In this document: positions 2,797 to 38,127 of the stretch, piece by piece
Position numbering within the stretch: the stretch's first letter is position 1
How the letters are laid out: each line of letters opens with the position of its first letter
Assembly: GCA_002840535.1 (NCBI GenBank)
Contig: PHBH01000024.1
Coordinates: 3,261-67,260, forward strand
Reading direction: 5' to 3'
Length of the DNA: 64,000 nt
Origin: Deltaproteobacteria bacterium HGW-Deltaproteobacteria-15
GTDB taxonomy: Bacteria > Desulfobacterota > DSM-4660 > Desulfatiglandales > HGW-15
Made by a program: the position numbers and the translations under genes
Notes under the pieces: generated by a model
Databases searched by the model: none
Told to the model about the DNA's origin: nothing
What the model saw: the letters and a program-made list of their open reading frames with translations, nothing else

Positions 2797-2843
2797 GATT
2801 TCGACGGATGCTCTTCCCTTTCGCCGGGCGGCTCAGGAGCCCG

Positions 2844-21576: not shown

Positions 21577-22200
21577 ATGAGTTTATTTGGCAGAATGATA
21601 ACTGTGATCTTCTTCAGCGCCGCCCTCTTTGCCGCGAGCGGCCGGCCCTGTCTTCCTCAAGAGAGTAACGTCCGCGCCAAAATCGGGATTCTCGTCAAGT
21701 CAGGTGACCAGATCGTCCGGGCCAGATCCATGGACCGCGTGAAGGCCGGAGACCTCATTCGCATTTACGTGCATCCTGAAGCCAGCTCCTATGTTTATGT
21801 GATCCACACCGACCAGAAGCGGGTCACCATGCTCAACATGGTGGAGCAGAAGATCCATAGCTCTACACTGGTGCTCCCTTCCCTGCAGGAATTCTACCAG
21901 GTGGACGGGAACAGCAAAGTGGAGAGCTTTACCGTCATCTGCAGTTCTGAAGAGGTCAAGGAGGTGTCGAGTCTCCTCACTTCCCAGATGGATCACGAGA
22001 AATGGACGTCACTCCAAAAGGATCTGGTCAAGAAGGGGGAGATCGACCTGGGGCAACAGACCGAGCGGCCTTTTGGGATTGCCGGGAACGTCCGTGGCAC
22101 TGCCGACGCCGGCGGCGATCCTTTTGTCAAAGAGCTACAGATCTTCTCCGGGAAAAAAGTTCTCGTGAAACAATATGAGTTTAGCGTTAAGAAGCAGTAA
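21577..22200 (+). CDS. secreted hypothetical protein (possibly DUF4384/FecR-like)
   Basis: Signal peptide. AAAGGAG SD upstream of the ATG at 21577. Precedes and overlaps the CHASE2 cyclase gene. Confidence 0.45.
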   Translation: MSLFGRMITVIFFSAALFAASGRPCLPQESNVRAKIGILVKSGDQIVRARSMDRVKAGDLIRIYVHPEASSYVYVIHTDQKRVTMLNMVEQKIHSSTLVLPSLQEFYQVDGNSKVESFTVICSSEEVKEVSSLLTSQMDHEKWTSLQKDLVKKGEIDLGQQTERPFGIAGNVRGTADAGGDPFVKELQIFSGKKVLVKQYEFSVKKQ

Positions 22201-24367
22201 ACTGCTGACTTTCATAGGCATCGCCGGAGCAGGGATCCTGGCCGCCGCCACTCTTCTTCTCTCTGCCCGGGGTACTGTGTGGACCCAGTACGATTACAAG
22301 GTTCTGGATCTTTACTACCGCGCTGCCGTTGCGAGCGGGCGCGGGCCCGCCCAATCGCCCCGGATCGTCATCACGACGATCACCGATAAGACCTATGACT
22401 ACTTTCAAAAGAACACCCTCGATCGCAGCGATCTTGCAGAGGTCAATGACGCTCTCGCTCGCCTGGGCGCGGAGGCGCTTGGCTATGATGTGATCTTTGC
22501 CCGTGCAAGCAACGAGCAGTCCGACACAAGATTCGCAGAATCCATACGAAAACATGGGGCCGTCTATCTTCCCATAGGACTTGCGTTCTCCGACCAGCCC
22601 AGGTCTTTTCGATGGGAGGAAGGCAGGGCATACGAGAGATTCCGTTCAGATTTTCTGCGAAGACCGGTCGAGCGGGGGGAAGCCAATCCCTACCATGCCA
22701 CGCGAGCACTCATGCAGTACGACCTCTTCTCCGAAGAGGCTTTCAACTCGGGGCATATCAGCGCCTACAGCGACCCCGATGGGGTGTACCGGCACCTTCT
22801 CATGCTTCTCAAGGTGGATGAGGAATACTTTCCCACCATAACCCTTTCCATATTTCTGGATCATGTTGGGATACCCTTTGAAAAGGTGCTGGTGGAATGG
22901 GGGAAGAGGATCGTCATTCCTGCGTCCAAAGAAGGCTTCCTGGAAAAGGACCTGATCATTCCCATCGACGAAAGAGGCCGCGCCGTCATCCCCTATCCCG
23001 CCGCGTGGGATCGCGCGTTCAAGAAGATGGAGGCCAATGCCCTCCTGAACTATCTGAAGGACGAGAACCTGCAAGGAAACCTCGCAGATTTCTTTGAGGG
23101 GAAGTTTGTTCTGATCGGAGATATCTCCATAGGAACAGCGGACCTCGGACATACGCCCCTTGAAGGTGATGCCCCTCTGGTTCTCCTCCATGCAGCCATG
23201 CTGAACGGCATGCTCACAAATACCTTTTTCTCAAAGTGGTCGCTTATGGAAGCGATAGTGGTCCTCTGGGGGATGTCCATTCTTCTCGGCCTTTCCGCAG
23301 CCATAAGGTCTTCATGGACCCTCTACGCAACAGGCGGTGCAGTGGCAGTTTTCCTCGCAGGGTTCACGTGGACGGAATTCATCGGGTTTCAGCTTTTCCC
23401 TGTTGCCACGGTCGGCGGAAGCGTGCTCCTCGTTTTTCTGGGTCTCCTGGCCACGCTCGAATTGGCAGTGGGGAAGGAGCGATCCTTCATCAAAAAAGCG
23501 TTTTCGAGATATTTGCCTGGAAAGGTCGTCGACACGCTCCTCTCCAACCCGGAATTGCTGAAGCTTGGCGGCGAAGAAAGAGTGATGTCCGTGCTTTTCT
23601 CAGACCTGGCAGGCTTCACATCAATCTCGGAACGCATGGCGCCCTCTCAGCTGGTCCGCCTCTTGAATGAGTATCTGACGAATATGACGGATATCGTGCT
23701 TGCGGAAGGAGGAATCATCGACAAGTTCGAAGGGGATGCCATCATGGCGGAATTCGGCGCACCTCTGCCCATGGACGATCATGCGGACAGGGCTGTGAGG
23801 GCCGGCCTCCTGATGCAGAACCGCCTCAGAGAGCTTCGAAGTGTCTGGGCGGCCCGGGGGCTTCCGGAGTTGAAGTGCCGCGTGGGCATCAATACGGGAA
23901 CCATGATCGTCGGGAACATGGGCTCCGACCAGGTCTTTGATTACACGGTGATCGGGGATTCGGTGAACCTCGCCTCCAGGCTGGAAGGGGCGAACAAAAG
24001 ATATGACACCGCGCTGATGATCTCCGAAGCCACGTTTACCAGCCTTACGCCCGGCCTTTTCAGGACGAGGGTTCTGGATCTGATCAAGGTCAAAGGAAAA
24101 TCCAGGGCCGTGAAAGTTTTCGAGGTTCTGGGCGAAAACAGTCTCGCTTTGAAACCGAATGAGGAGCTCTATTACCAGGCGTATGAGGAGGCATTCGCAG
24201 CATACCTGTCCCGGGATTTTCATCCTGCACGTGCCAAGTTCCAGAAGGCGCTCTCCTTGAGACCGAATGACCCTGCTGCAAAGGACATGCTTGAGCGTAT
24301 CGAAAACCTCGACCCCGACACCCTCCCCCCCGACTGGGATGGATCCATCTCTCTTACCAGTAAATAG
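22175..24367 (+). CDS. CHASE2 sensor domain + class III adenylate/guanylate cyclase
   Basis: N-terminal TM, periplasmic CHASE2-like region, 3 TM helices, then cyclase motifs (LFSDLAGFT, FEGDAIMAEFGAP). Confidence 0.8.
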   Translation: MSLALRSSKLLTFIGIAGAGILAAATLLLSARGTVWTQYDYKVLDLYYRAAVASGRGPAQSPRIVITTITDKTYDYFQKNTLDRSDLAEVNDALARLGAEALGYDVIFARASNEQSDTRFAESIRKHGAVYLPIGLAFSDQPRSFRWEEGRAYERFRSDFLRRPVERGEANPYHATRALMQYDLFSEEAFNSGHISAYSDPDGVYRHLLMLLKVDEEYFPTITLSIFLDHVGIPFEKVLVEWGKRIVIPASKEGFLEKDLIIPIDERGRAVIPYPAAWDRAFKKMEANALLNYLKDENLQGNLADFFEGKFVLIGDISIGTADLGHTPLEGDAPLVLLHAAMLNGMLTNTFFSKWSLMEAIVVLWGMSILLGLSAAIRSSWTLYATGGAVAVFLAGFTWTEFIGFQLFPVATVGGSVLLVFLGLLATLELAVGKERSFIKKAFSRYLPGKVVDTLLSNPELLKLGGEERVMSVLFSDLAGFTSISERMAPSQLVRLLNEYLTNMTDIVLAEGGIIDKFEGDAIMAEFGAPLPMDDHADRAVRAGLLMQNRLRELRSVWAARGLPELKCRVGINTGTMIVGNMGSDQVFDYTVIGDSVNLASRLEGANKRYDTALMISEATFTSLTPGLFRTRVLDLIKVKGKSRAVKVFEVLGENSLALKPNEELYYQAYEEAFAAYLSRDFHPARAKFQKALSLRPNDPAAKDMLERIENLDPDTLPPDWDGSISLTSK

Positions 24368-24523: not shown

Positions 24524-24681
24524 TACGAGAGTGTCAATGTGGACAAACTCGTTAAAAGTCGTCATTCCGGCGAAGGCCGGAATCCAGATATCTGCAAGGG
24601 CCCGAAAATACTGGATCCCGGCCTTCGCCGGGATGACGAAAAAGGGTATTTTCGACTTCTTACGAGACCGGCAATGTTGGA
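24524..24681. repeat. twin GC-hairpin element: hairpin 1 (24563-24585) and hairpin 2 (24614-24639) are reverse complements of each other with one compensatory base-pair change. Flanked by 22-bp imperfect direct repeats (ttacgagaNNNNcaatgt.ggac).
   Basis: tcattccggcgaaggccggaatcc versus gatcccggccttcgccgggatgac. Direct repeats at 24524-24545 and 24659-24681. Confidence 0.6.
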
Positions 24682-25155: not shown

Positions 25156-26652
25156 TTATCTTTTTCCGATAAAGAACAGGAACTCGCCTTCCCCTTCCAG
25201 TCTGCCGTAGAGGGGGGTTTGGGCCTGGTTGGAGGCTTCCGAGACTACCGGTCTGATGTAGGCGCCAAGCTCCGTTCCGGTAACCACACCGTCCTTGTCA
25301 ATGTCCGCCTCACCGTCCAGGGCCTTGAGCAGAAATCCCGTGAAGAGACCCTGTCCCCCCTTCTCCTGGGCCTGCTCCCCGCTGCCTCCTGCAGTGACGA
25401 TCTGAACGGCCCTCATAGATGCCACCTTCCGAAGGAATCCTGAAACAGCCTGCGAGGTCCCGATGGATCTGGAAAGCCCGAGTCCCGAATAGCAGGAATC
25501 CATCACAAAGAGGATATGCTTTGCCCGGATTCTGCTCGACAGGCTTCGCACCTGTTCCATCGAAATGGAGGTGCTTGCATACGCAGCCGTATCCCCGTCA
25601 ACCGGGATGATGTACCCCTTCTTCGCCCCTCCCTCGACATCCTCGGTCTGGCCATGGCCTGCAAAGTAAAAAAGGACCCGATCATTGGGACCGACTTTTC
25701 CGGGAAGGGTGTGGAAAAGCTCGGTGAGGATTCTCCCCTGCGTCGCCTGCTTGTCCAGGACCAGAGTGATCTCCTGGAAGCCGGTTTCCCTGAGCCTTTT
25801 CTCCACGTCTTTCGCGTCCTTAACGGCGAACTCCAGGGGCGGCCATTTCTCATATTGGTCAATCCCGATGATCACTGCAAACGACTTCCCATAGAAATCG
25901 GCAGGACCCGTTCCCGTTAGAGGAAGCTGGGTTCCCGCCCTTTCGAAGGTGATCGATTGAGTGGATCGGTTTCCAAGCCGGTCGGATGCCTCCACCACAA
26001 TAGTGTTGGTTCCGGCCTGGACGGAAATGTCCCTGATAAAATGGCCGGAGTCCTCCAGCGAAGCTTCCTGCTGGTTGACCCTGACCCAAGCAACACCGCT
26101 CTTGTCGGTCGCAATGCCGCGAACACTCAGGTTTTCATGCGTCAGCACCATGCTCAGGCCCCGGGTTCCTGCAGGTTCGAGCATGATGAGCCTGGGTCCG
26201 TCCCGATCCATAACCGCTTCGATCTTCCCCTTGAGCTCCAGTGCCTCTTTGTAATCCTTCTGTATGGACAAGGACTTCATCACATGCCTGTGCGCCTCAT
26301 CATGCTCGTTCCTTTCAAAGAGAAGTGACGCAAGGAGATGGTAGAGTTTGTAATTGTTGCTTCCGAGCTCTGCCGCCTTGGTGAAGGCGGCAATGGCCGT
26401 ATCTTTCTTGCCCTCATTACGATAGAGGTTGCCAAGGATCTCATAGCTTCGAATGTAGCCGGGACAGCTCTCGATGGCATCGAGGCAGAGCTGGACAGCT
26501 TTTGTTTTGTCTTTTGCAAAACGGGCCTTTGCCGTGAGATGCGGCGCCCGCTCGCAACCTTCTTCAGCCTGAAGGGCGGGGTTTCCCAGAAAAAGCGCCG
26601 GCAGAAAAATTGAAAGGAATGCACATGCACGAGCGTTCTTTGATTGTCCCAT
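25156..26652 (-). CDS. secreted TPR + caspase-family (peptidase C14, orthocaspase) protein
   Basis: Signal peptide, N-terminal TPRs, and a caspase His/Cys dyad context (YFAGHGQ ... FVMDSCYSG). Confidence 0.75.
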   Translation of the reverse strand: MGQSKNARACAFLSIFLPALFLGNPALQAEEGCERAPHLTAKARFAKDKTKAVQLCLDAIESCPGYIRSYEILGNLYRNEGKKDTAIAAFTKAAELGSNNYKLYHLLASLLFERNEHDEAHRHVMKSLSIQKDYKEALELKGKIEAVMDRDGPRLIMLEPAGTRGLSMVLTHENLSVRGIATDKSGVAWVRVNQQEASLEDSGHFIRDISVQAGTNTIVVEASDRLGNRSTQSITFERAGTQLPLTGTGPADFYGKSFAVIIGIDQYEKWPPLEFAVKDAKDVEKRLRETGFQEITLVLDKQATQGRILTELFHTLPGKVGPNDRVLFYFAGHGQTEDVEGGAKKGYIIPVDGDTAAYASTSISMEQVRSLSSRIRAKHILFVMDSCYSGLGLSRSIGTSQAVSGFLRKVASMRAVQIVTAGGSGEQAQEKGGQGLFTGFLLKALDGEADIDKDGVVTGTELGAYIRPVVSEASNQAQTPLYGRLEGEGEFLFFIGKR

Positions 26653-26667
26653 TCATTGACCTCGAGC

Positions 26668-27456
26668 TCAGATTTCTTGTTCGATAATCGCGTCCGCCGA
26701 ATTGATGATGAAATTATCGAATACCACAATAAATGGAGAACCTGCTCCAATCTCCTTCCGTCTTGGAGCGAAATTCTGCGCCCTGAGCGTGACAAGGACT
26801 TCATTCGCCTGTTGAACGAATCGGCCCAACTCTTTCCATTCGCTCTCCCCCTTTTTCCTGAACATGGTCGTCGCCCTGATTCCTTTTCTGGAGATCCTGA
26901 GACTCCCATCGAAATCGTCGACTTCCCGTCTAACAGGCCGGTGGATCCGGCCTTTCTGGCGATAAAAGGCAACTAATTGGGGATTTGCCTGGCCCAGTTT
27001 GAAAATATTGATGTTGATGCTCTCAATCTCAGTATCGCTCAGCTCCTTGCTCATGTCCCGGAGATTGAAGGACAGGAGCTGATCCATATCCCGGGCGCTC
27101 TTTACAAACTCCACCTTGCAGTCCACCTGGATGTCGAAGTCGCCCTTTAGCGCGAAATTCGACCCAACCCCGCCAGCGCTGTAGCAACCGGTTCTTGTTT
27201 CGATCCTCAGCTGTCCATCCTTCACCCTCATGTCGGCCAATTTGAAGTTCTCCCCTATAATCTCCTCCTGCGGTATGTATCCGGCAACATTCCAGAGATC
27301 TTCCCTGAATTTGTCGAAGGTATCGCTGTAGCGGGAGAGTTCACTGGGGCTCAACCCTTTTTCGACTTTAGGGGCAGGGCTGCCCGTGACGCATGAGGAA
27401 AAGATGAAGAGACCGCCAATGAATCCAAGGAGTAAGCAGCACGATCGAGTCTTCAT
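26668..27456 (-). CDS. hypothetical lipoprotein
   Basis: Lipobox LFIFSSC after the start at 27456, which has an AAAGGAG SD. Immediately upstream of the caspase gene. Confidence 0.5.
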   Translation of the reverse strand: MKTRSCCLLLGFIGGLFIFSSCVTGSPAPKVEKGLSPSELSRYSDTFDKFREDLWNVAGYIPQEEIIGENFKLADMRVKDGQLRIETRTGCYSAGGVGSNFALKGDFDIQVDCKVEFVKSARDMDQLLSFNLRDMSKELSDTEIESININIFKLGQANPQLVAFYRQKGRIHRPVRREVDDFDGSLRISRKGIRATTMFRKKGESEWKELGRFVQQANEVLVTLRAQNFAPRRKEIGAGSPFIVVFDNFIINSADAIIEQEI

Positions 27457-27602
27457 TCCGTCTGCTCCTTTCAAAAGAAGTCTGGGAAAGACGAGCACAC
27501 CCAATACCATTTCCGGGAATTTTGCTCAAGAGACTTGCAGGAGAGAGCAACCACGATCCAGGATGCAATGCGGGTGCTAAAGAGAGGAGCCATGCACGCG
27601 CT

Positions 27603-28448
27603 CTAACGCCTGTGCGCTTGCTCTCCTTTGATCAGATCCGGGATCCGGAGGTACTCGTCCCCCTCCTCGACCCTGCCCCTTTTGATACAGCCCCTTCCGT
27701 AGATGCCGCACTTGAGAGCCAGTTCCTCGAACACGGCATTAAGCTGGTGATCTTTTAGCGTGCCGCTCCGGATCAGCTTCACCATCGCTCTGATCCTGTA
27801 CTGATCGAGTCCCTCTACGGTCGCGGAGAGCTGGTCCGAAGAACCGCCTTCCTTGATAAGCAGCGCCGAGCTGATGAGGTGAATCGGATAACGGCAGGAG
27901 ATCCTGAGCCAGAGATCATAGTCCTCGCAGGCTGGAAGGGATTCGTCAAACATCCCCACCTCCTCCAGGACCTGCCGCCTGAGCATCACGGCCGACGGGC
28001 TCACAAGGCAGAGTTTCAAAGAAGGTTCAAAGATTATCCCCGAGGGCTTCGCGTGTTTTCTCATGGGATTCACGCGTCTTCCCCTGCGCAACCAGATCTC
28101 CTCGGTCTGGCAGGCAACCGCATCGGGATGCAATCGAAAGAAGTCGACCTGCGTTGTCAATTTATCGGGCAGCCAATGGTCGTCGGAATCAAGAAATGCA
28201 ATGAGGGAAGAGTGCGAGGCCAGGATCCCGGTGTTCCTCGCAGCGGAAACGCCCCTGTTTTCCCCATGAAAAAGGACCTGTATGCGCGGGCCGAAGTGTT
28301 GGAGGACCTCTCGCGTCCGGTCTCTTGAGCCGTCGTCCACCACGATGATTTCATAATCCCGGAAGCTCTGGTCAAGCACCGAGCCGACAGCCCTGGCGAC
28401 CTTGGCGGCTCGGTTATAAGTTGGGATGATGACGCTGACCGCTGTCAT
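27603..28448 (-). CDS. family 2 glycosyltransferase
   Basis: GT2 motifs (VSVIIPTYN, DDGSRD, DSDD). The start ATG overlaps the stop of the upstream IspH-fusion gene (ATGA). Confidence 0.75.
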   Translation of the reverse strand: MTAVSVIIPTYNRAAKVARAVGSVLDQSFRDYEIIVVDDGSRDRTREVLQHFGPRIQVLFHGENRGVSAARNTGILASHSSLIAFLDSDDHWLPDKLTTQVDFFRLHPDAVACQTEEIWLRRGRRVNPMRKHAKPSGIIFEPSLKLCLVSPSAVMLRRQVLEEVGMFDESLPACEDYDLWLRISCRYPIHLISSALLIKEGGSSDQLSATVEGLDQYRIRAMVKLIRSGTLKDHQLNAVFEELALKCGIYGRGCIKRGRVEEGDEYLRIPDLIKGEQAHRR

Positions 28449-30178
28449 GAGAGGCTGTGCGAGATCAGGGCCAGGAACCCTGCGAGAAAGAGATTCCCCT
28501 CCAGCATGGCTTCGAGCCGCATACCCGGGTACAGCCACCTTCTTTCATAGGCGAGAATTGTAAGCCTCAAGCCTATAAAGCAGCATACAAGAAGATACGA
28601 AACCGAACCTATCGGAACGGCCAACGGCGCAAAGATCAGCAGCAGGACGCCCGCGAGGATGATTCCCTTCAGAAGATAGAGGGCTTTCTTTTCGCCGATT
28701 ACAATGGGAAGAGTCTCCCTTCCCACGATCATATCCCCCTGGAGCTCGAAAATTTCAAAGAGTCCGCCCCTCACATAGACGAGGGCAAAAACGAAGAAGA
28801 AGGAGACCAGTGCAGGACTCCATGCAACTTCCCGTTGCTCCAGCAGGGGCAAAAGGCCCATGAGAGCGGCCCATGCAAGGGCCTGGGAGAGGGTTTTGGA
28901 ACCCGGGATATCCTTGATCTTCGAAAACTGCCACATTTGCCGCAGCCCCTTGGGCACAATGGGGATGCTGTAGATCATGCCGAGCAGGCTCAGCCCCGCC
29001 GTTCCAAAAAGGACGGCATCGCCCAGATCATTGGAAAGGATGAGGGCGGCGGCCATCGCTCCCACCCCGGTTAGAAACAGGGCCGTTTTGTGTTTCCTGT
29101 AGAAGTTCGCCCTTTCCGGATCATTGTATGCACTTGCACCCTTGTCCAGAAAGCGATTGAGGACATACATCGCGTAAATATAGAAGAACGCAAGGGTGGG
29201 GTGCACGAGATCGGGGACTCTCCCCGCCAGGATCATGGACGCACAGGTAAGGGAAAAGGCGCCAAGCGAAACCATGACGTTTCCGAGAAAAAGAAGCTTC
29301 AGCGAGCGACTGACCAGTCGGTGAAGCCGCGATTCCCTCGGACTGCGGATGGACTCGATCCGTTGCACGACACTACGGATCATCCAATTGGGGGTCGATG
29401 CTCCGGCCGTCACGCCGATGACCTCCATATTCGAGAGTCTGTCCTTGTTGAGCTCTTCCTCGGTTTCCACATGAAAGGCGGGTATTCCGGCTTCCTGGGC
29501 AACCTGGACAAGGCGTCGGGTGTTTCCGCTGTGAAACCCCCCCACCACAACGAGCCCATCAACCTGGGGAGCCAGGGATTTCACTTCCTCCTGGCGGCTG
29601 GTAGTGGCATCGCAGATGGTTTCATGGACCTGCGCGTGAGGGTACCTTCTCCGGATGGCATCCACTACTTCCTTATACTTGTCCACATCCTGGGTAGTCT
29701 GGGCGACGACGACGAGCCTCTCCATGTCCGGCAGTTCGCTCACCTGGCTGCTCTCCTCGATAACGTGCACGCGCCCGTTCCCGTACCCGACCAGACCGAT
29801 GACCTCCGGATGGCTGGACTCACCGACGATCACGGCGCGATATCCCTTGCCGGTGTGATACCGGATAATAGACTGCACATGGGCCACATGGGGGCAGGTC
29901 GCATCGATGATCCGCATTCCTGAAGCTTTGAGGATCTTTCGCTGCTGGGGCGGGATACCGTGCGCCCGAATGATGAGGGTGCCCTCTTTTAAATCGGAAT
30001 CGCTTTCGATAACACCGACGCCCTTGGATTCCAGCAGGTCCATGACCTGCTTGTTATGGATCACGGGACCAAAGGTGAATATGGGACCCTTGCTCCTGTT
30101 CGTCTCCAGGAGCACGATCTCGATTGCCCTGCGAACACCCATGCAGAAACCTGCAGTCTTGGCAAGCTTCACCTTCAA
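28445..30178 (-). CDS. ispH: IspH/LytB (HMBPP reductase) fused to a C-terminal approximately 290-aa polytopic membrane domain
   Basis: N-terminal 275 aa carry IspH hallmarks (GFCMGVRRAI, ATCPHV, conserved Cys x3). Continuous ORF into 8 or so TM helices. TTG start overlapping the dus stop (TTGA). Confidence 0.7.
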   Translation of the reverse strand: MKVKLAKTAGFCMGVRRAIEIVLLETNRSKGPIFTFGPVIHNKQVMDLLESKGVGVIESDSDLKEGTLIIRAHGIPPQQRKILKASGMRIIDATCPHVAHVQSIIRYHTGKGYRAVIVGESSHPEVIGLVGYGNGRVHVIEESSQVSELPDMERLVVVAQTTQDVDKYKEVVDAIRRRYPHAQVHETICDATTSRQEEVKSLAPQVDGLVVVGGFHSGNTRRLVQVAQEAGIPAFHVETEEELNKDRLSNMEVIGVTAGASTPNWMIRSVVQRIESIRSPRESRLHRLVSRSLKLLFLGNVMVSLGAFSLTCASMILAGRVPDLVHPTLAFFYIYAMYVLNRFLDKGASAYNDPERANFYRKHKTALFLTGVGAMAAALILSNDLGDAVLFGTAGLSLLGMIYSIPIVPKGLRQMWQFSKIKDIPGSKTLSQALAWAALMGLLPLLEQREVAWSPALVSFFFVFALVYVRGGLFEIFELQGDMIVGRETLPIVIGEKKALYLLKGIILAGVLLLIFAPLAVPIGSVSYLLVCCFIGLRLTILAYERRWLYPGMRLEAMLEGNLFLAGFLALISHSLS

Positions 30179-31152
30179 AACGTTTCCATCTCCAGTGAGG
30201 AAAGGTAATGGTCCACGATGGCAATAAGGCTCTGCGCATCCCTGATTTTTGTGATGCTTTCCCGAAATCGGGCGCAGTTTCTAAGCCCCTTGGTGTAGAA
30301 AAGCATGAGGCTTCGCATGCCAAGAGCCGCCTTGTGTTCACCGGCGGTCTCGGAGAGAAATTGAAAATGCTCCATAATGAAAGATCTGCGCTCCGAGAGA
30401 TCAGGCTCCGCGAAGGGAACTCCCTTCTCCAGGCCAAGGATCTGCCGGAAGATCCAGGGATTCTTCAGGGCTCCCCTCCCGATCATGACCCCGTCGCAGC
30501 CGGTTCTTTTTCTCATCTCCAGCGCTGCATGGGGTTCGAAGATGTCGCCATTCCCGATTACCGGTATTTTGACCCTCTCCTTTACGCGCGATATCCAGCC
30601 CCAGTCCGCGAGCCCGGAAAATCCTTGTGAGGCAAATCGCGGGTGCACGGTGACGGCATCGGCGCCGGAGTCCTCGGCTATCCTGGCCACCTCGCATGCA
30701 ACGGGCGCGTCGGGGGACCATCCAGCGCGGATTTTCACCGTCAAAGGAACGCTGCAGGCCAGCCGCACAGCCTTGACCACCTGCTCGACCCCTTGGAGAT
30801 CCCTGAGGAGCGATGCTCCGGCGCCTGTCCTGACCACCTTCTTGACAGGACACCCCATGTTGATGTCCACGAGATCCGCGCCCGCCTCCACCGCAAGCTG
30901 GGCCGCCCGCGCCATCACCTCCGGCCTCGAGCCGAAAATCTGGACCGACAACGGCCTCTCCGAAGGGTGGGATTTCAGATACTGAAGCGTCTTTTTCTGC
31001 CCCAGCGCCAGTCCCATGGCGCTGATCATCTCCGTGGTCACCAGCCCGGCCCCAAGTTTCTTGACCATTAAACGAAACGGCAGGTTGGTGTAGCCTGCCA
31101 TCGGGGCCATGATGAGGGGATTGGCTATTTTCAGGTTACCTATCTGCAGCAT
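30175..31152 (-). CDS. tRNA-dihydrouridine synthase (Dus family)
   Basis: LAPMAGYTNLPFR N-terminus, catalytic Cys (NMGCP) and TIM-barrel motifs. Confidence 0.85.
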   Translation of the reverse strand: MLQIGNLKIANPLIMAPMAGYTNLPFRLMVKKLGAGLVTTEMISAMGLALGQKKTLQYLKSHPSERPLSVQIFGSRPEVMARAAQLAVEAGADLVDINMGCPVKKVVRTGAGASLLRDLQGVEQVVKAVRLACSVPLTVKIRAGWSPDAPVACEVARIAEDSGADAVTVHPRFASQGFSGLADWGWISRVKERVKIPVIGNGDIFEPHAALEMRKRTGCDGVMIGRGALKNPWIFRQILGLEKGVPFAEPDLSERRSFIMEHFQFLSETAGEHKAALGMRSLMLFYTKGLRNCARFRESITKIRDAQSLIAIVDHYLSSLEMETF

Positions 31153-31229
31153 GAACTCATTTTATCGGACTTACACAGCAGATACAACGGCTTTCCCGGC
31201 CTGCAAAGAGGACTAGACGACGGATTCAT

Positions 31230-32771
31230 CTACTGATCATCTTTAGCGGGCTTATTCATACTCTTCATATCCCCCAGAAACTTGGGGAGGTCCAGTCCCG
31301 CCATTTCGGCGATGTCATGGAGAGGCGGCAGGCTCTTGACAAAGCCTGAAAGAAAATTGGCTGTCGTGGTGCCGCCGCCGTTCTCTTTTCCTGAATCCCA
31401 AACGGTAATCTTGTCGATTTTGAGATTCTTGATGGCCTCAACCTGCAAGTTCACCAGGTCCTGCAGTTTCTCAATCATCAGGAATGTGCCGGCGGCCTTG
31501 GCATCCCCGCTGCAGCTCTTGACCAGGTCGGAATAACCGGCAGCCTTGCTTTCAAGGACCTTCCTGACGCCTTCAGCCTCTGCCTGGTATCTTAAAAGGA
31601 TCGCGTCGGCCTGACCCTTTGCCACCCTTCGGACCCGTTCGGCCTCTGCTTCCGCCGCAATTTCGATCTTCTGTTTTTCGATTTCCTTCTGGACCACTTC
31701 CTCGGCTATCAACCGTTCACGCTCGGTATTGTACTGGGCTTTTTGGATCTCTTCCATGGCCTTCCGATTGGCCACCTCGCCACGCATATAAGCGTCCGCC
31801 TTCTTGACGGCCAGCTGGGCCTGGGATTCCGCAATATCCGCCTTGGCCGTGTTTTCACCTGCAACCGCCTCTGCCTCCTGCTGCTGCACGTAGATACGTT
31901 TATCGGCTTCGGCCTTTTTCTTGCCTTTTTCTGCTTCTGCAGCATTTTCGGCCACGCGTATGTCTTTTTCCTTGTTCGCAGTGGCTTCACCGATGGTGGC
32001 GGATGTCTCCTGCTGCTGGACAAAAACTCTCCGTTCCGCATCGGCCTTCTTTTTTCCCTTTTCCGCCTCTGCCAGGTTTTCCGCAACGCGGATCTCTTTT
32101 TCCTTGGAAGCCATGGATTGACCGATGGCCCCCAGTTTTTCCTGCTCCGCCACATCGATCTTTGCCTGGTTGATCGCTTCTGCCGCGGCCTTTTTGCCGA
32201 TACTCTCGATGTAGTCGGAAGAATCCGTGATATCCGTAATATTCACATTGATGAGGTACAATCCGATCTTATTGAGCTCCGGAGCCACATTTTTTCGGAT
32301 CTCTTCGAGGAATTTTTCGCGATCCTGGTTGATCTGTTCAATGGTCAGGGACGCAACGGTGAGCCTGAGCTGGCCGAAGATGATCTCCTTGGCCATCTCC
32401 TCGATATCCGTCTGGGGCAGATTCAGGAGCCTTTCCGCTGCATTGTTCATTATGCCTTCTTCAGTGCTGATGCCCACCGTAAATGTGCTGGGGACATTGA
32501 TGCGGATATTCTGCATTGAAAGGGCATTCTGCAGGGGAATGCTGATGGTCATGGGCGTGAGGTCCATGTAAGCATAGTCCTGAATCAGTGGTATGACCAA
32601 CGCGCCCCCGCCGTGGATACATTGGGCTGACTGGCCTTCCCCGACCCTGCCGTAAATCACCAGAATTTTATCAGACGGACACCTTTTGTACCGCGATGCA
32701 AGGAACAGCAAGACCATAAAAATCAATGCCAAAGCTGCAATTATCACCCACAACCAGACTCCGAGTCCCAT
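31230..32771 (-). CDS. flotillin-like SPFH/band-7 protein
   Basis: N-terminal TM, SPFH domain, and a long EA-rich coiled-coil repeat region. Confidence 0.8.
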   Translation of the reverse strand: MGLGVWLWVIIAALALIFMVLLFLASRYKRCPSDKILVIYGRVGEGQSAQCIHGGGALVIPLIQDYAYMDLTPMTISIPLQNALSMQNIRINVPSTFTVGISTEEGIMNNAAERLLNLPQTDIEEMAKEIIFGQLRLTVASLTIEQINQDREKFLEEIRKNVAPELNKIGLYLINVNITDITDSSDYIESIGKKAAAEAINQAKIDVAEQEKLGAIGQSMASKEKEIRVAENLAEAEKGKKKADAERRVFVQQQETSATIGEATANKEKDIRVAENAAEAEKGKKKAEADKRIYVQQQEAEAVAGENTAKADIAESQAQLAVKKADAYMRGEVANRKAMEEIQKAQYNTERERLIAEEVVQKEIEKQKIEIAAEAEAERVRRVAKGQADAILLRYQAEAEGVRKVLESKAAGYSDLVKSCSGDAKAAGTFLMIEKLQDLVNLQVEAIKNLKIDKITVWDSGKENGGGTTTANFLSGFVKSLPPLHDIAEMAGLDLPKFLGDMKSMNKPAKDDQ

Positions 32772-32797
32772 AGGTGTCTCCTTCCTTGAAGATGCTA

Positions 32798-33370
32798 TTA
32801 TATGGATTCTACGACCAGGACATTGCCATCTACCCAGACAACCCTGACAGGCGTCCCTGTCTTAATGCCCTTCTTGTCATTTGACATGGCGTCATATTCA
32901 CGCAGACTGCTGTGGACTTTGATCAGCACTCTCCCGTTGCCGTTTTCCGGGATATTGGTATAGACCTCGCCCTGGGCACCGACGGTGTTGTCGATGGTAA
33001 TGGTGCCGCTGGATTTTAGCCCGGCAATCATGGCGAAAAGCTTACCCATAACCCAGATGCACAATAATCCGGCAGCTGTCCCTCCAATGACGGCTATCAG
33101 GGTCCCCACCCCGCTCTCATGATGGAGGGCAAGCCCCACCAGGCCGAACATCATAAGAAAAGAGGTGATGCCCTGGAGAGACAGGGCTCTGAAACCCACA
33201 TCCGAATCCGAATGATGGGCGTCTATGTCATGCCCTCCCATGTCCATGTGGGTATCCACATCGTGGTCCATACCCATAAACTGCGCTATCAATTTGAGGA
33301 GTACAAAGAAGCCTCCAATGACGGCACAGATCAGGAAAAAGACTTCAACCCCATTGTATTGAGAGAACAT
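32798..33370 (-). CDS. NfeD-like membrane protein (flotillin partner)
   Basis: TM helices plus a C-terminal OB-fold-like beta region. Start at the ATG at 33370 with a GAGGAGGG SD. Genomic pairing with flotillin. Confidence 0.6.
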   Translation of the reverse strand: MFSQYNGVEVFFLICAVIGGFFVLLKLIAQFMGMDHDVDTHMDMGGHDIDAHHSDSDVGFRALSLQGITSFLMMFGLVGLALHHESGVGTLIAVIGGTAAGLLCIWVMGKLFAMIAGLKSSGTITIDNTVGAQGEVYTNIPENGNGRVLIKVHSSLREYDAMSNDKKGIKTGTPVRVVWVDGNVLVVESI

Positions 33371-33670
33371 ACCACCCTCCTCACACCAATTGCTTCCAAT
33401 CTTGATTCTCCGGTGAACACAAACCTGAAACGGTGCGAGTGTAGTGCGAAAATGCAAAGAACCGTTGGACGCACCGCGCTAGCGCAAGTTGGCCGCTGAT
33501 TTTAGGAAACAGATGGTACAACCTTAAAAGGATATTCGGTAATATGATGATACAGGTTTAGTAGAATTTTGAAGAGGCGGCTCTGGTTATTGTCTTTTCG
33601 TTCGAGATAATAGTTGTTCTCGCCTTAATATCAACAGAATTTATGTGGCATGGGCGAAAGACCGCTGCTC

Positions 33671-34381
33671 TTATTCCAGATCATTGGCTGGGCCTGAAGC
33701 GGGCTGTTTCGGTTCCCGCGGATCGGCCTCATCCGGTGTCAAGGACGATTTTAGGCCTTCAAATTCCTTTTCAATTTCTTCATCCTCCAGAAGTGTGTCG
33801 AACTCGGATTCCAGCCTGGTCTTTCCGGTATAGCGGGCACCGGATTCTATACTCTCGAGGCGCTTTTCCATTTCCTCAAACCGAAGCACGGCATCGGTGC
33901 TCTCCATGCTGCGGATTTTCTGTTGCGCACGCATCCTGCCGTTGGCATAAATCTGGCGGTGAACCAGGGTGCGTTGTTTTTCCCTGGCATTTTGGAGTCT
34001 GTCTGTCAGTTCCCGAATGTCTTCCTGATACCGTGCGACGAGCGCATTGTGGTCGTCCAGCTCTTTCCTAAGGTTCTCTCCCTTGTTTGTGAATCGACGT
34101 TTCTGGACCAGCGCTTCTCGTGCAAGGTCATTCCGGCCTTTTTTGACAGCCAGCACTGCCCGTTCATCCCACAACTTCTCCCGCTCGCCGGTTTCCATGG
34201 TCTGCCGCTGGATCTTCCTGCAGCCGGCCATGCCGCGGGCACAGGATGCCTTAAGCTCCACCAGGGTGTCTTCCATTTCCCGGATGATGATTTTGACCAG
34301 CTTCTCAGGGTCTTCTGATTTGTCCAGCATGGAATTGATATTTGAACTGATGATGTCCCTGAACCTCGTGAAAATTCCCAT
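33671..34381 (-). CDS. pspA: PspA/IM30 family (phage shock protein A)
   Basis: Conserved N-terminus [27 protein letters not shown]; coiled-coil protein. GGAGG SD. Confidence 0.8.
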   Translation of the reverse strand: [236 protein letters not shown]

Positions 34382-34802
34382 GGTATAATCCTCCGTAAAT
34401 TTTCACTCGCTGCCTTCCTCATCTCGATTTCTTATCCAAGACTGAAGCATTGAACATGCCGGACTTGGTTCCTGCGATATAGATCACCTGTTATCAACGA
34501 GATACGGCTTTAAAGATTCTCCCAGTCACGGGTAGTTGAAACCGAATATAGGCCAATGAATCCAAATAGTGACATTTTATACCATTCCTTTTTCAAAAGA
34601 AATGCCACAAAGGCCCGGGAAACACAGACAGAAAAGTCAGGAGCCAGAAGACAGGAGTCAGAAGACAGAAGAATCCGGCAAGGGGCAAGAAAAGGTCTGT
34701 GTCCTTTGGTAAGGCACGGCTGGCGTCCGGAGTCGTTAACTCTACAAACGTCGGAAGCTGGCAGGTACAACAGTTTTCCCGGATTGAAATTTTTATTGAC
34801 GC

Positions 34803-34927: not shown

Positions 34928-37420
34928 ATGTCAAGGGAGACCAAGATCCTGGTAACGGAAGAAGGCGTATTCGATCTTGCCTCCTACAGGTGGGACGACC
35001 GGCTCTTCTCTGACCTTCTTACCAGGGAAAATCCTATTGACACAGACCAGGCCATGCTCATCAGCAAGTCCCTGAGGGACGAGATCCGAAGGATGGAGCT
35101 GCAAACCATCCCCGTCCCCCTCCTTGAAAAGATCATCGAGAATAAGCTGCTGGAATACGGACTCGCCAAGCCCTCCCCGGTGAAGCTGGAGAAATCGATT
35201 TTCGTGAAAAAGCAGGAATTGGAACTCTCCGACAACGCACGAACAGTGCTCAAACGAAGGTATCTCAGAAAGGATGAAGGGGGCAGGATAATCGAAACCC
35301 CGGAAGAGATGTTCAGGCGGGTATCGAGGCATATCGCCCTTGCTGAAAAAAACTTTGGTGCAGACGATCGATTCCTGAACGAGATGGATGAGCGGTTCTA
35401 TGCGCTTATGACGGATTTCCGGTTCCTGCCGAATTCTCCCACGCTCATGAACGCCGGTCGAAGACTCGGTCAGTTGGCAGCCTGTTTCGTCCTCCCCGTA
35501 GACGACAGCATGGACGGCATATTCGATGCTTTGAAGAATGCGGCCCTGATTCACAAGTCCGGCGGAGGAACAGGTTTTTCCTTTTCACGGCTGCGGCCCA
35601 AGAACAGCAAAGTCGGCACGACCGGAGGAGTGGCATCCGGACCGGTCTCCTTCATGAAGATCTTCAACACGGCCACGGAGCAGGTAAAACAGGGCGGCAC
35701 CAGGCGGGGAGCCAACATGGCCATCCTCCGTGTGGACCATCCGGATATCCAGGAATTCATTACCTGCAAGAAGACCAACCGGGAGCTGAACAACTTCAAC
35801 ATCTCGGTGGGAGTCACGGATCTTTTCATGCAAGCCGTGCGGGCAGGGAAATCCTATGATCTGATCGACCCGCGAACCCGGGACAAAGTGGGTGAGCTGG
35901 ATGCTTCGGAGGTCTATCACAGCCTTGTTTTTCATGCGTGGGAAAACGGGGACCCGGGGGTGGTGTTCCTGGACAAGGTCAACAAGGACAATCCCACCCC
36001 GGCGCTGGGTGAGATTGAGAGCACCAATCCGTGCGGCGAGCAGCCTCTCCTGCCAATGGAGGCATGCAATCTCGGATCCGTCAATCTGGCAAAGTTCGTC
36101 ACATCCTCCCATAACGGGCCTGCAGTGGATTGGGCCGGTCTCAAAGAGACGGTGTGGCTCTCGGTGCGCTTTCTGGACAATGTGATCGAAAGGTCTCTCT
36201 ACCCCCTGCCGGAGATTGAGGCCATGGCGAAGGGAAACAGGAAGATCGGCCTGGGGGTCATGGGTTTTGCGGATTTGCTGTACCATCTTAGAATACCTTA
36301 CAACTCGGACAGAGCGATCCAAACCGCAGAGGAGGTCATGAGCTTCATTCAGAAGGAATCGCATGAAGCATCCAAATCCCTCGCGGAAGAGCGGGGGACC
36401 TTCCCCAATTTCGACAGGAGCATCTTTAGAAAGAGGGAGGGTAGCAGGTTCAGAAATGCCACCGCCACGACCATTGCCCCTACCGGCACCCTTTCCATCA
36501 TAGCGGGGTGCTCCAGCGGAATAGAACCCCTCTTCGCGCTCAGTTTTGTGAGGAGGGTGATGGACAATGACGAGCTCTTGGAGGTGAACCCCATTTTCGA
36601 ACAGGTCGCAAGGGAAAGGGGATTCTACAGCCGGGAGCTCATGGATGCGGTGGCCAGGGACGGAAGCATCAGGGATCTGCCCGGCATCCCTGAAGATGTG
36701 AGACAGGTCTTTGTGACCGCTCACGACATCGTCCCTGAGTGGCACGTTCGGATGCAGGCGGCGTTTCAAAAGTACACGGACAACGCGGTTTCCAAAACCG
36801 TGAATCTCCCCAGGGATGCTTCGGTCGAGGACGTCAGGAAGGTGTATGCCCTTGCTTATGAGCTGGGTTGCAAGGGAGTGACGATCTACCGGGACGGCAG
36901 CAAGGAGAACCAGGTCCTCAGTTATGACCACAAAACGGAGGACGCGGCGGGCGGCATCAGTGATGTGCGCGATCGCCCGGAAACGCTGGAAGGCTTTACC
37001 ACCAAGCTGCTGACCGGCATGGGCAATCTCTATGTGACCGTGACCGAGATGGATGGAAAGCCCTTCGAGGTATTCGCAACCATAGGGAAGTCGGGAAAGT
37101 CCACTATGGCAAAAACAGAGGCCATCGGCAGACTGGTGTCTCTCGCCCTGCGATCCGGAGTGAATGTTGCGAAGATCGTCGAGCAGCTGAAAGGGATCTG
37201 CGGCGAGCATCCCGTCTTCCAGAAGGACGGATTGATCCTGTCCATCCCCGATGCCATCAGCAAGGTGCTTGAGAAGAGATATCTGAAGGATGGGAAAGAC
37301 CGAATCAAGAAACACGAAAACAGCCTCCTCGGGGAAACCTGTCCAGAGTGCGGCCAGAAGATCAGCTTCGAAGAGGGCTGCATGACCTGCCATTTCTGCG
37401 GCTACACCAGATGCGGGTAG
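34928..37420 (+). CDS. nrdJ: adenosylcobalamin-dependent ribonucleotide reductase (class II) with C-terminal zinc ribbon
   Basis: TNPCGEQPL..EACNLGS active-site region and class II architecture. AAGGAGG SD. Confidence 0.9.
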   Translation: MSRETKILVTEEGVFDLASYRWDDRLFSDLLTRENPIDTDQAMLISKSLRDEIRRMELQTIPVPLLEKIIENKLLEYGLAKPSPVKLEKSIFVKKQELELSDNARTVLKRRYLRKDEGGRIIETPEEMFRRVSRHIALAEKNFGADDRFLNEMDERFYALMTDFRFLPNSPTLMNAGRRLGQLAACFVLPVDDSMDGIFDALKNAALIHKSGGGTGFSFSRLRPKNSKVGTTGGVASGPVSFMKIFNTATEQVKQGGTRRGANMAILRVDHPDIQEFITCKKTNRELNNFNISVGVTDLFMQAVRAGKSYDLIDPRTRDKVGELDASEVYHSLVFHAWENGDPGVVFLDKVNKDNPTPALGEIESTNPCGEQPLLPMEACNLGSVNLAKFVTSSHNGPAVDWAGLKETVWLSVRFLDNVIERSLYPLPEIEAMAKGNRKIGLGVMGFADLLYHLRIPYNSDRAIQTAEEVMSFIQKESHEASKSLAEERGTFPNFDRSIFRKREGSRFRNATATTIAPTGTLSIIAGCSSGIEPLFALSFVRRVMDNDELLEVNPIFEQVARERGFYSRELMDAVARDGSIRDLPGIPEDVRQVFVTAHDIVPEWHVRMQAAFQKYTDNAVSKTVNLPRDASVEDVRKVYALAYELGCKGVTIYRDGSKENQVLSYDHKTEDAAGGISDVRDRPETLEGFTTKLLTGMGNLYVTVTEMDGKPFEVFATIGKSGKSTMAKTEAIGRLVSLALRSGVNVAKIVEQLKGICGEHPVFQKDGLILSIPDAISKVLEKRYLKDGKDRIKKHENSLLGETCPECGQKISFEEGCMTCHFCGYTRCG

Positions 37421-37594
37421 GTAGATTTATCCACAGATTCGAAAGAAGGGCCGCAAAGCGAAAGCCGCGCAGTTGCTGATCTCCGACCTCCGATCTCTGA
37501 CCATCTCTATCCGTGTTCATCCGCGTCCCAATTCTTATTTTTCTTTTATGCACCTGCAGACCTCTGGCCTCCGACCTCACTCCCGTTCCCTTTC

Positions 37595-37622
37595 TTGACA
37601 TACCGTCGACCCTGATTATATT
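37595..37622 (+). promoter_or_regulatory. sigma70-like promoter TTGACA-N16-TATATT upstream of hsp20
   Basis: Read from the sequence. About 60 nt upstream of the hsp20 start. Confidence 0.5.
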
Positions 37623-37680
37623 GCATGCCAAGGATTTTGGGTTCAAACCCTTAGAAAACGTGGATAGGAGGTGGTCAGCT

Positions 37681-38127
37681 ATGACAACTGCTCTCGAAAA
37701 AAAGATGAGGAGACCGTCTTGGATGACCCCGTTCGGCGAAGAAGGGTTAGGCGATGTTTTCTTTGACAGACTTTGGCCGGAGTGGCGACGAGACATGGGT
37801 GAAGAATGGACTCCGACTGTGGACCTTTTTGAAAAGGAAGGAAATTATCACCTCAAAGCGGAACTCCCAGGCTTCAATAAGGAGGATATTTCGGTAAGCT
37901 TGAGCGAAGGAACGGTTACCCTGACTGGAAAGAAAGAGTCCAGCCATGAAGAGAAGACCGAGGAATACCATATCAAGGAAATGTCATCCGGTTCGTTCAC
38001 CAGGAGTTTTGAATTGCCCGGCGAAGTCGACGAGGAGAAGATCGACGCCAATTACAAGGACGGGGTCCTGACGGTGATCATGCCCAAGAAGAATGGTTCA
38101 AAGGCCAAGAGAATAGAAGTTCACTGA
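37681..38127 (+). CDS. Hsp20/alpha-crystallin small heat shock protein
   Basis: Alpha-crystallin domain (P.VDL.E......L.AELPG....D) and C-terminal I/V-x-I/V. GGAGGTG SD. Confidence 0.85.
   Translation: MTTALEKKMRRPSWMTPFGEEGLGDVFFDRLWPEWRRDMGEEWTPTVDLFEKEGNYHLKAELPGFNKEDISVSLSEGTVTLTGKKESSHEEKTEEYHIKEMSSGSFTRSFELPGEVDEEKIDANYKDGVLTVIMPKKNGSKAKRIEVH

Follow-up and report, generated by a model that had tools for sequence, protein, structure and literature searches.

The window, the 64-kb stretch of DNA analysed here, contains a triad of minus-strand genes in which a fusion of IspH (HMBPP reductase) to a UbiA-like membrane domain lies between dusB and a family-2 glycosyltransferase (GT2) gene:

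30175..31152, minus strand: dusB, tRNA dihydrouridine synthase B, 325 aa (PF01207, E=3.9e-85)
28445..30178, minus strand: ispH-ubiA fusion gene, 577 aa plus stop, TTG start
27603..28448, minus strand: GT2 gene (MTAVSVIIPTYN...), 281 aa (PF00535, E=9.6e-37)

The identity of DusB is confirmed by TIGR00737 (357.7 bits, cut-off 293.3). The dusB TGA stop and the fusion TTG start have TG in common within a 4-nt TTGA overlap, and the TGA stop of the fusion overlaps the GT2 ATG as ATGA. Both overlaps, described in an earlier note on this DNA, were read directly and are conserved in the window's clade, where the −4 overlap of dusB and fusion is maintained and that of fusion and GT2 spans 1-19 nt in 12 of 14 scorable loci. 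An intermediate clade has 75-334 nt between fusion and GT2; the overlapping triad is confined to the window's clade, and both neighbours are missing in other clades. The three genes are probably co-transcribed and translationally coupled in the window's clade. A promoter and terminator scan of 26400-34600 gave site numbers that matched or came close to the shuffle expectation, with nothing informative around the triad, and the 64-kb window holds no second ispH or UbiA gene. The fusion neighbourhood is made up of origin-proximal core genes (dusB, DUF3842, plsY, parAB, dnaA); its conserved neighbours c2, c4, c5 and c7 were rejected as pathway partners because they are parB, parA, plsY and DUF3842, which points to origin-proximal housekeeping synteny.

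The 577-aa fusion product is identical to NCBI PKN64278.1 and is found on four contigs from different sources (NCBI, Logan, ENA), and the same uninterrupted frame recurs at 34 genome loci, which settles the frameshift check that the earlier note had proposed. For the same fusion in other genomes, a check also proposed there, two protein searches listed 120 clusters (90% identity) each, and all 240 carry both Pfam domains, nearly all at full length (559-585 aa) with no gap at the junction. The first search listed matches with 57-97% identity to the window protein, and the second a clade that aligns to it at 39-43%. Relatives with the fusion come from Desulfatiglandales, Desulfobacteraceae and Syntrophobacteria MAGs, and Leptospiraceae MAGs carry it as well. 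Searching with the UbiA-type domain recovered 418 cluster representatives (50% identity) at E<1e-10; the best 150 of these comprise 79 full fusions and 30 truncated fusions, with the remainder mostly fragments, and short matches to the UbiA subfamily are mostly fusion fragments that retain the IspH C-terminus VTAGASTPNW. In hundreds of lineages a single conserved frame encodes both IspH and the UbiA-like domain.

That separate ispH and ubiA-like genes were joined by a frameshift or in assembly is excluded by the four contigs, the 240 listed clusters and the 34 loci. The hundreds of gapless homologues of 559-585 aa leave such an artefact a negligible probability, as does the independent publication of the architecture from cultured genomes, which include Desulfobacula toluolica, Desulfobacterium autotrophicum, Desulfobacca acetoxidans as well as Thermodesulfatator (PMC4746011). 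That publication also overturns the earlier view that the architecture was undescribed: Rao, O'Dowd, Li, Wang and Oldfield (Chem Sci 2015, PMC4746011) reported 47 IspH-UbiA "Rosetta stone" fusions from sulfate reducers. The fusion is thus real, widespread and known in its architecture since 2015, and the window protein, which comes from MAG HGW-Deltaproteobacteria-15, belongs as an ordinary member to the IspH-UbiA family published for Desulfobacterota (Thermodesulfobacteriota). This family is far larger (418 clusters against 47 sequences) and taxonomically wider than was reported in 2015, and the clade-restricted overlapping dusB-fusion-GT2 triad is a further point beyond that report.

The essential Fe-S enzyme IspH is a target for anti-infectives. 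The fusion protein joins it to the membrane domain through the following parts:

29354..30178, minus strand: IspH (HMBPP reductase) domain, residues 1-275
28448..29329, minus strand: UbiA-fold membrane domain, residues 284-577, nine predicted transmembrane helices
29111..29158, minus strand: degenerate first Asp-rich motif, N341-RFL-D345-KGA-S349-AY-N352-D353-P-E-R356
28895..28915, minus strand: K422-D-I-P-G-S-K428 motif, placed in the helix 4-5 loop from helix positions
28712..28756, minus strand: second Asp-rich motif region, E475-IF-E478-LQG-D482-MIVG-R-E488-T489

Judged by its residues, the N-terminal part is a complete HMBPP reductase that lacks none of the cluster ligands or catalytic residues; the complete IspH half that the earlier note read in the 577-aa ORF, with its strings GFCMGV and ATCPHV, and the YNDPERANF string further on are all present. 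Pfam LYTB (PF02401) matches residues 3-275 (E=4.2e-94; 315.2 bits against a GA of 24.5), and TIGR00216 (302 bits, cut-off 187.85) and NF002187 (283.5 bits, cut-off 276) agree. The [4Fe-4S] ligands Cys12, Cys95 and Cys189 align with the cysteines of E. coli (C12, C96, C197) and A. aeolicus, and are invariant in 11 diverse fusions and in the family alignment. The substrate and proton-relay residues His41, His73, His123, Glu125, Thr161, Ser217, Asn219 and Ser261 are all present (in E. coli H41, H74, H124, E126, T167, S225, N227 and S269), and the catalytic residues are invariant in every clade, Leptospiraceae fusions included. This half has the trefoil three-domain alpha/beta fold, and its conservation exceeds that of the UbiA domain in every comparison (64/55, 53/38, 48/33 and 39/25% identity for IspH/UbiA).

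The C-terminal 294 residues are modelled as a nine-helix UbiA fold. AlphaFold2 gives the fusion two confident domains (pLDDT 89.2, pTM 0.84), of which the UbiA-like half is all-helical, with about nine transmembrane helices round a central cavity, one more than the roughly eight counted earlier. An HMM search of the C-terminal region supported the suspicion that the membrane half is of prenyl type, assigning residues 310-545 to the UbiA prenyltransferase superfamily (PF01040, E=1.1e-8), by a marginal pass (35.2 bits, with the gathering score at 34.2); homologues bear a precomputed PF01040 match. No curated NCBIfam model reached its cut-off on this domain (best 36 bits against 238), and phmmer with the single domain against PDB sequences gave no match, so that a family profile was needed to align it to PDB relatives. 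It clusters with fusion-type UbiA domains, which Rao et al. place in the PT_UbiA_5 subfamily (PMC4746011). One distant stand-alone relative of the subfamily adjoins a geranylgeranyl-reductase-family gene, a single and anecdotal case.

The first motif aligns with the ChlG motif NDFYDRDIDAINEPYR, and YNDPERANF, whose weak likeness to an Asp-rich motif had been noted before, corresponds to (I/A)N(E/K)PxRP, by which the first motif is extended in chlorophyll synthase and DGGGPS. The pattern N(D)xxDxxxD is nevertheless broken, reading N341-xxx-D345-xxx-S349: a census of position 349 gives Ser for 112 of 120 cluster representatives in the window's clade and Asp for 118 of 120 in the Desulfobacteraceae clade, where the middle Asp is in turn frequently missing (Gly in 71/120). 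The canonical second motif is DxxDxxxD. Here its DxxxD element is E478-xxx-D482 in the window protein, and position 478 is Gln (102/120), Glu (16/120) or Asp (1/120) in the window's clade and Asp throughout the Desulfobacteraceae clade (120/120). Going by the alignments, the window's clade has other residues in place of two of the four aspartates that canonically bind Mg in UbiA enzymes (S349; Q/E478). Because the aspartates are so unevenly retained, prenyltransferase activity is not to be assumed. Other positions hold firm: P425, S427 and K428 of the KDIPGSK loop (itself of low pLDDT, ~59-78, in the AlphaFold2 model) are nearly invariant family-wide, D482, G486, E488 and T489 vary hardly or not at all, and together with Y403, W436 and R470 they make up a set of nearly invariant polar residues that argues for a functional site over a plain anchor.

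The GT2 protein, 100% identical to P0391 of Deltaproteobacteria bacterium HGW-Deltaproteobacteria-15, matches PF00535 at 126.9 bits (against 23.3) and carries its DxD as D87-S-D89. A hydrophobicity scan found no segment at a transmembrane-like threshold, and its sequence is that of a soluble GT-A fold family-2 glycosyltransferase. No NCBIfam model matched at cut-off (best TuaG, 116 against 400), and among solved sequences chondroitin synthase K4CP (4e-28) comes nearest, with SpsA and PglI also found. The match to DPMS (5mlz) reaches only 1.3e-6 and that to the ArnC-type model NF007986 26.6 bits against 529; a polyprenyl-phosphate glycosyltransferase of the DPMS/GtrB/ArnC type was accordingly rejected, the similarity pattern being that of polysaccharide-type GT-A enzymes. 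GT2 adjoins the fusion in 19 of 34 genome loci, comprising 18 strong matches (near-complete or contig-truncated) and locus L004, where a 59-aa fragment stands at the contig end; three look-ups anchored on GT2 had the fusion as neighbour in all three. Orthologues are 63-100% identical over the 120 clusters listed, which is unusually conserved, and the Desulfobacteraceae, Desulfosarcina, Desulfococcaceae, Desulfobacca, L030 and Leptospiraceae loci have no GT2 within 10 kb of the fusion. By sequence, then, GT2 is a distinct, highly conserved Desulfobacterota orthogroup beside the fusion.

These observations are, in our judgement, likely to be best explained by a fusion of the published family in which a functional IspH is held at the membrane and the UbiA-like domain probably binds isoprenoid (di)phosphate. 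The IspH half would be active and may be the cell's main, housekeeping IPP/DMAPP enzyme, since its catalytic residues never vary and it sits in a stable origin-proximal core neighbourhood. UbiA proteins canonically have the N-terminus inside and both Asp-motif loops in the cytoplasm; by analogy, this topology would put IspH at the cytoplasmic face and hence the last MEP step at the membrane. The fusion may hold IspH directly above the UbiA cavity, in a docking geometry judged from the pTM of the model. The UbiA-like domain probably still binds an isoprenoid (di)phosphate, which it may pass on to some acceptor, with N341/D345/D353 and E475/E478/D482, together with K428 and R470, as a putative non-canonical metal site. 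GT2 may share a pathway with the fusion.

A UbiA-like domain that carries out no prenyl transfer and only tethers IspH to the membrane, for example near prenyl-consuming membrane enzymes or an electron donor, seems to us unlikely; such a role would be clearer in Leptospiraceae, whose fusions lack D345, D353, KDIPGSK and D478 yet keep a perfect IspH. The change of NxxxDxxxD to NxxxDxxxS and of DxxxD to Q/ExxxD in 112-118 of 120 clade representatives, the loss of different aspartates from clade to clade and the faster evolution of the UbiA half all fit a mere anchor. Set against this, the membrane domain has some ten polar or charged positions that scarcely vary over more than 390 sequences outside Leptospiraceae, a nine-helix fold of constant length is unnecessary for a tether, and D353 and D/E475 are conserved as possibly compensating acidic residues.

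The dedicated isoprenoid-lipid or polyprenyl-sugar module proposed in the earlier note goes unproven, with GT2 adjacent in about half of the loci and the UbiA aspartates partly replaced. A module of this kind, in which UbiA would make a prenylated lipid, or an intermediate linked to polyprenyl, from IspH-derived units for the coupled GT2 to glycosylate, is quite unlikely. It would account for the short overlaps in 12 of 14 scorable loci, for the conserved GT2 neighbour in 19 of 34 and for the geranylgeranyl-reductase-family gene beside the stand-alone UbiA relative, which fits an isoprenoid-lipid role; but GT2 is missing within 10 kb of the fusion in Desulfobacteraceae, Leptospiraceae and other clades, the intermediate clade has its gap of 75-334 nt, and dusB, a tRNA enzyme with no plausible isoprenoid link, is coupled just as tightly. 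The soluble GT2 is, moreover, nearest polysaccharide-type GT-A enzymes, with DPMS at only 1e-6, and the UbiA motifs are degenerate. More specifically, the IspH-UbiA/GT2 pair might make an undescribed glycosylated isoprenoid, the UbiA-like domain, through the non-canonical metal site (with Q or E at 478), taking the C5 product of IspH, or else HMBPP, straight from the active site fused to it; we regard this as very improbable, and if true it would amount to a substrate-channelled transfer of hemiterpene or short-prenyl units at the membrane.

Under the preferred reading of a functional IspH held at the membrane, the invariably intact IspH suggests that its membrane placement is the constant selected feature, and a membrane-fixed IspH beside a prenyltransferase-like cavity offers a natural experiment in metabolic channelling, for which the window's clade supplies a testable partner in the overlapping GT2.

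Among known systems, the polysaccharide GT-A enzymes K4CP, TuaG, SpsA and PglI have the GT2 fold signature and DxD in common with the window GT2, which differs in that it matched no curated equivalog. Unlike canonical IspH/LytB (E. coli 3ke8/3zgl, Aquifex aeolicus 3dnf), the window protein runs past residue ~278 into a membrane domain. That domain is 12-17% identical to the UbiA prenyltransferases ApUbiA (4od4), AfUbiA (4tq3), DGGGPS (6m31), chlorophyll synthase (9sau) and UBIAD1 (8djm), from which it differs in replacing the last Asp of motif 1 and the first Asp of DxxxD and in its fusion-family-specific KDIPGSK loop motif. The IspH-RPS1 fusions of Clostridia and Fusobacteria likewise carry a C-terminal extension about the size of IspH, and in the one case tested the IspH part was active with or without it (PMC4746011); their partner consists of soluble RNA-binding S1 repeats, whereas that of the window protein is a membrane domain, and the NCBIfam model PRK00087 matches its IspH part only (311 bits, cut-off 624). 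UbiA-like operons are discussed in the Aravind lipocone paper, which does not include the IspH-UbiA fusion, and in the literature after 2015 we found no functional work on IspH-UbiA or PT_UbiA_5. Closest are the fusions of Rao et al. (PMC4746011), who proposed that IspH feeds IPP/DMAPP to a membrane prenyltransferase and whose expression of a full-length IspH-UbiA protein failed. Their "two DXXXD repeats" do not hold for the window's clade (S349; Q/E478), but the architecture is the same, ~575-585 aa with an N-terminal IspH and a C-terminal 9-TM UbiA-like domain, and the host is again placed in Desulfobacterota, the fusions of Rao et al. being from sulfate reducers.

The IspH-UbiA fusion is a real feature, which an earlier note read correctly at the sequence level, and it belongs to a family published in 2015 (Rao et al. 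2015, Chem Sci, PMC4746011). It lies between two genes on the same strand:

30175..31152, minus strand, dusB, upstream neighbour (TIGR00737, 357.7 bits vs a cut-off of 293.3)
28445..30178, minus strand, ispH-ubiA fusion, 577 aa, TTG start
27603..28448, minus strand, family-2 glycosyltransferase (GT2), downstream neighbour (PF00535, E=9.6e-37)

The open reading frame was found as the note had claimed, and both overlaps it described can be seen in the DNA. The end of dusB reads ...GAA ACG TTT TGA, and the TTG of the fusion uses the TG of this TGA in a 4-nt TTGA overlap, and GGAG can be read 10 nt 5' of this start codon. At the other junction, the last codons of the fusion are ...CTC TCA TGA, and the GT2 start ATG (MTAVSVIIPTYN...) sits inside an ATGA overlap.

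A single reading frame carries an IspH half with a complete catalytic apparatus and a half with a UbiA fold. Pfam LYTB covers residues 3-275 (E=4.2e-94), and the N-terminal half scores 302 bits against the NCBIfam IspH equivalog TIGR00216, over the cut-off of 187.85. Pfam UbiA (PF01040) covers residues 310-545 (E=1.1e-8) at 35.2 bits, 1 bit over the gathering score, and the NCBIfam matches of the C-terminal half are assorted UbiA-type prenyltransferases, all sub-threshold (best PRK13591, 36 vs 238 bits). The polytopic membrane domain of the note stands, but its count of about eight helices gives way to nine in the structure model (284-317, 325-342, 364-385, 387-402, 427-446, 453-477, 496-520, 531-545 and 553-576). 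Structure matches (scores in brackets) include ApUbiA 4od4 (19.9), AfUbiA 4tq3 (19.2; AfUbiA entries have Foldseek E-values near 1e-5, namely 8e-6 for 4tq4 and 1.6e-5 for 4tq3), UBIAD1 (15.1), DPPR synthase (14.0) and DGGGPS (11.8), and a profile built from 35 diverse domains picks up DGGGPS 6m31 (E=4e-7) and chlorophyll synthase (E=7e-3).

A frameshift or an assembly join of two genes is ruled out by the occurrence of the window protein on four contigs (sources NCBI, Logan and ENA; the longest 242,566 bp) and by many full-length homologues. Among the matches listed, a search with the window protein gave 120 clusters (at 90% identity), 57-97% identical to it, nearly all 559-585 aa long and all with both Pfam domains; a second seed, a relative 42% identical, gave another 120. 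A scan of species-representative genomes found 34 loci with the full-length fusion, in Desulfatiglandales, Desulfobacteraceae, Syntrophobacteria, Desulfobacca, Desulfosarcina, Desulfococcaceae, an unclassified bacterium and three Leptospiraceae MAGs, the last taking the family beyond sulfate reducers. When the membrane domain was used by itself in an exhaustive phmmer search of 1.84 billion cluster representatives, 975 matched at E<1e-3 and 418 at the stricter E<1e-10; the best 150 comprise 79 complete fusions, 30 truncated fusions and 41 others, most of them visibly fragments and about three resembling true stand-alone proteins. In the fusion-type UbiA subfamily, a domain joined to IspH is the rule.

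The central novelty claim of the note fails because IspH-UbiA fusions were already described by Rao et al., who reported 47 sequences, mainly from Desulfobacterales, classed the membrane domain as CDD PT_UbiA_5 of unknown function, noted a separate MenA/UbiA in fusion-bearing genomes, obtained a nine-helix Phyre2 model, could not express the full-length protein and proposed that IspH is brought to the membrane by the UbiA part and supplies IPP/DMAPP there; the gene neighbourhood is not discussed (PMC4746011). We found no later literature on the function of the fusion, and public databases annotate the family, but as IspH only. Our additions are a broader set of hosts, a count of how the motifs have degenerated and, in one clade, an overlapping GT2 partner, which makes the function of the UbiA half a more testable question.

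In a profile alignment, the window's N341-RFL-D345-KGA-S349-AY-N352-D353-P-E-R356 lies opposite N-DFY-D-RDI-D-AI-N-E-P-Y-R of ChlG, and YNDPERANF, whose likeness to prenyltransferase Asp-rich motifs had been suspected, thus corresponds to the conserved end of the first such motif. The canonical UbiA aspartates are not kept uniformly over the 390+ aligned domains.

Residue census, 120 representatives per clade (window's clade; Desulfobacteraceae clade)
Position 345: Asp 120/120; Gly 71/120, Asp 48/120
Position 349: Ser 112/120; Asp 118/120
Position 478 (first Asp of DxxxD): Gln 102/120, Glu 16/120, Asp 1/120; Asp 120/120

The window protein itself has Glu at 478. Outside Leptospiraceae there is little or no variation at Y403, P425, S427, K428, W436, R470, D482, G486, E488 and T489, and selection on the membrane domain is therefore more specific than hydrophobicity, but the domain does not form a textbook UbiA active site.

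The ApUbiA and AfUbiA structures illustrate the established UbiA topology, with the two motif-bearing loops and the N-terminus on the cytoplasmic side, so a UbiA domain at the C-terminus of cytoplasmic IspH is geometrically natural; by analogy, the IspH active site would share a face with the UbiA cavity. The structure model suggests that IspH may be docked in a defined way on the UbiA half rather than loosely tethered (pTM 0.84). The reading we think likely as a whole, with less confidence in its last part, is that the fusion would act at the membrane as a functional IspH, and possibly as the main one in the cell; that membrane placement would be the constant, selected feature; and that the UbiA-like half, through a modified site, probably retains binding of an isoprenoid (di)phosphate, which it may pass on to some acceptor. 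The main rival, a non-catalytic anchor in the window's clade, strikes us as unlikely. The Leptospiraceae fusions, in which the KDIPGSK loop motif and the majority of UbiA motif residues are missing, hint that tethering alone may be the retained function. These proteins (L032, L034 and L035 (10001-11728); 576 aa, 30-31% identity) keep the IspH catalytic set wholly intact, and the genes upstream resemble type II secretion or pilus components.

Neighbourhoods were compared by tblastn and ORF clustering over the loci, plus three look-ups anchored on GT2 orthologues.

Gene order by clade
Window's clade (IspH domain at least 59% identical): dusB next to the fusion and the fusion next to GT2, usually with a 4-nt overlap at each junction
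Intermediate clade (L010-L018): order unchanged, dusB-fusion gaps of 54-292 nt and fusion-GT2 gaps of 19-334 nt, except L013
L013, L019-L030 and Leptospiraceae: neither dusB nor GT2 adjoins the fusion

The TTG start is kept in eight loci of the window's clade. Neighbours recurring across clades are parA, parB, plsY and DUF3842, with dnaA further out, an origin-proximal housekeeping block. DUF3842, plsY, parB and parA lie within a few kb of the fusion in L039, L040 and L022-L029 (dnaA too in L039), and in several lineages DUF3842 immediately adjoins either the fusion or GT2. The window holds further features around the three genes:

22175-24367, plus strand, 730 aa, CHASE2 sensor domain fused to a class III adenylate/guanylate cyclase domain
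24550-24650, intergenic REP-like inverted repeat (cattccggcgaaggccggaatcc ... ggatcccggccttcgccgggatgacg) between the CHASE2 cyclase gene and a cupin gene
25156-26652, minus strand, 498 aa, signal-like N-terminus, TPR repeats, Glucodextranase-B-like beta domain and caspase (Peptidase_C14) domain
26668-27510, minus strand, 280 aa, lipoprotein-like N-terminus (…LFIFSSC), separated from the upstream GT2 by 92 nt, same orientation
31230-32771, minus strand, flotillin/SPFH protein
32798-33457, minus strand, NfeD-like protein
33671-34381, minus strand, PspA/IM30
34928-37420, plus strand, ribonucleotide reductase large-subunit homologue, 830 aa, C-terminal TSCPD domain
37513-38127, Hsp20 gene, after the reductase homologue

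The PspA, NfeD and flotillin genes form a membrane-stress/microdomain cluster (31230-34381) that immediately precedes dusB in the same orientation and is not conserved beside the fusion in other loci. The 498-aa protein is, by its predicted domains, an unusual secreted or periplasmic caspase-family architecture; the 280-aa protein has no Pfam match and is conserved in none of the related loci. Spurious ORFs over the repeat encode 'PAKAGIQ / PAFAGMT' peptides, which are frequent in environmental genomes.

Putative co-transcription and translational coupling of dusB, the fusion and GT2 are well supported in the window's clade by this layout, in keeping with the coupling to GT2 that the note had proposed. 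Its further step, a dedicated isoprenoid-glycolipid module with GT2, we regard as quite improbable. A pathway shared by the fusion and GT2 is not well supported, since coupling of this kind extends to dusB as well. An isoprenoid-lipid role for the subfamily is weakly supported by a distant, apparently stand-alone fusion-type UbiA member that adjoins a flavoprotein gene of the geranylgeranyl-reductase family (L041, 1383-2267, protein P0254, and 2309-3364; TIGR02032 149 bits, slightly below the cut-off of 158.8). An unannotated 398-aa protein also adjoins P0254, its end overlapping the P0254 start. GT2 itself is predicted to be soluble, and its orthogroup is highly conserved, spanning 63-100% identity over 120 clusters among the matches listed; the 100% match is a protein of Deltaproteobacteria bacterium HGW-Deltaproteobacteria-15, the source of the window. 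The closest similarity of GT2 is to GT-A enzymes of the polysaccharide type (K4CP at 4e-28, also SpsA and PglI), whereas dolichol-P-mannose synthase is matched at only 1e-6.
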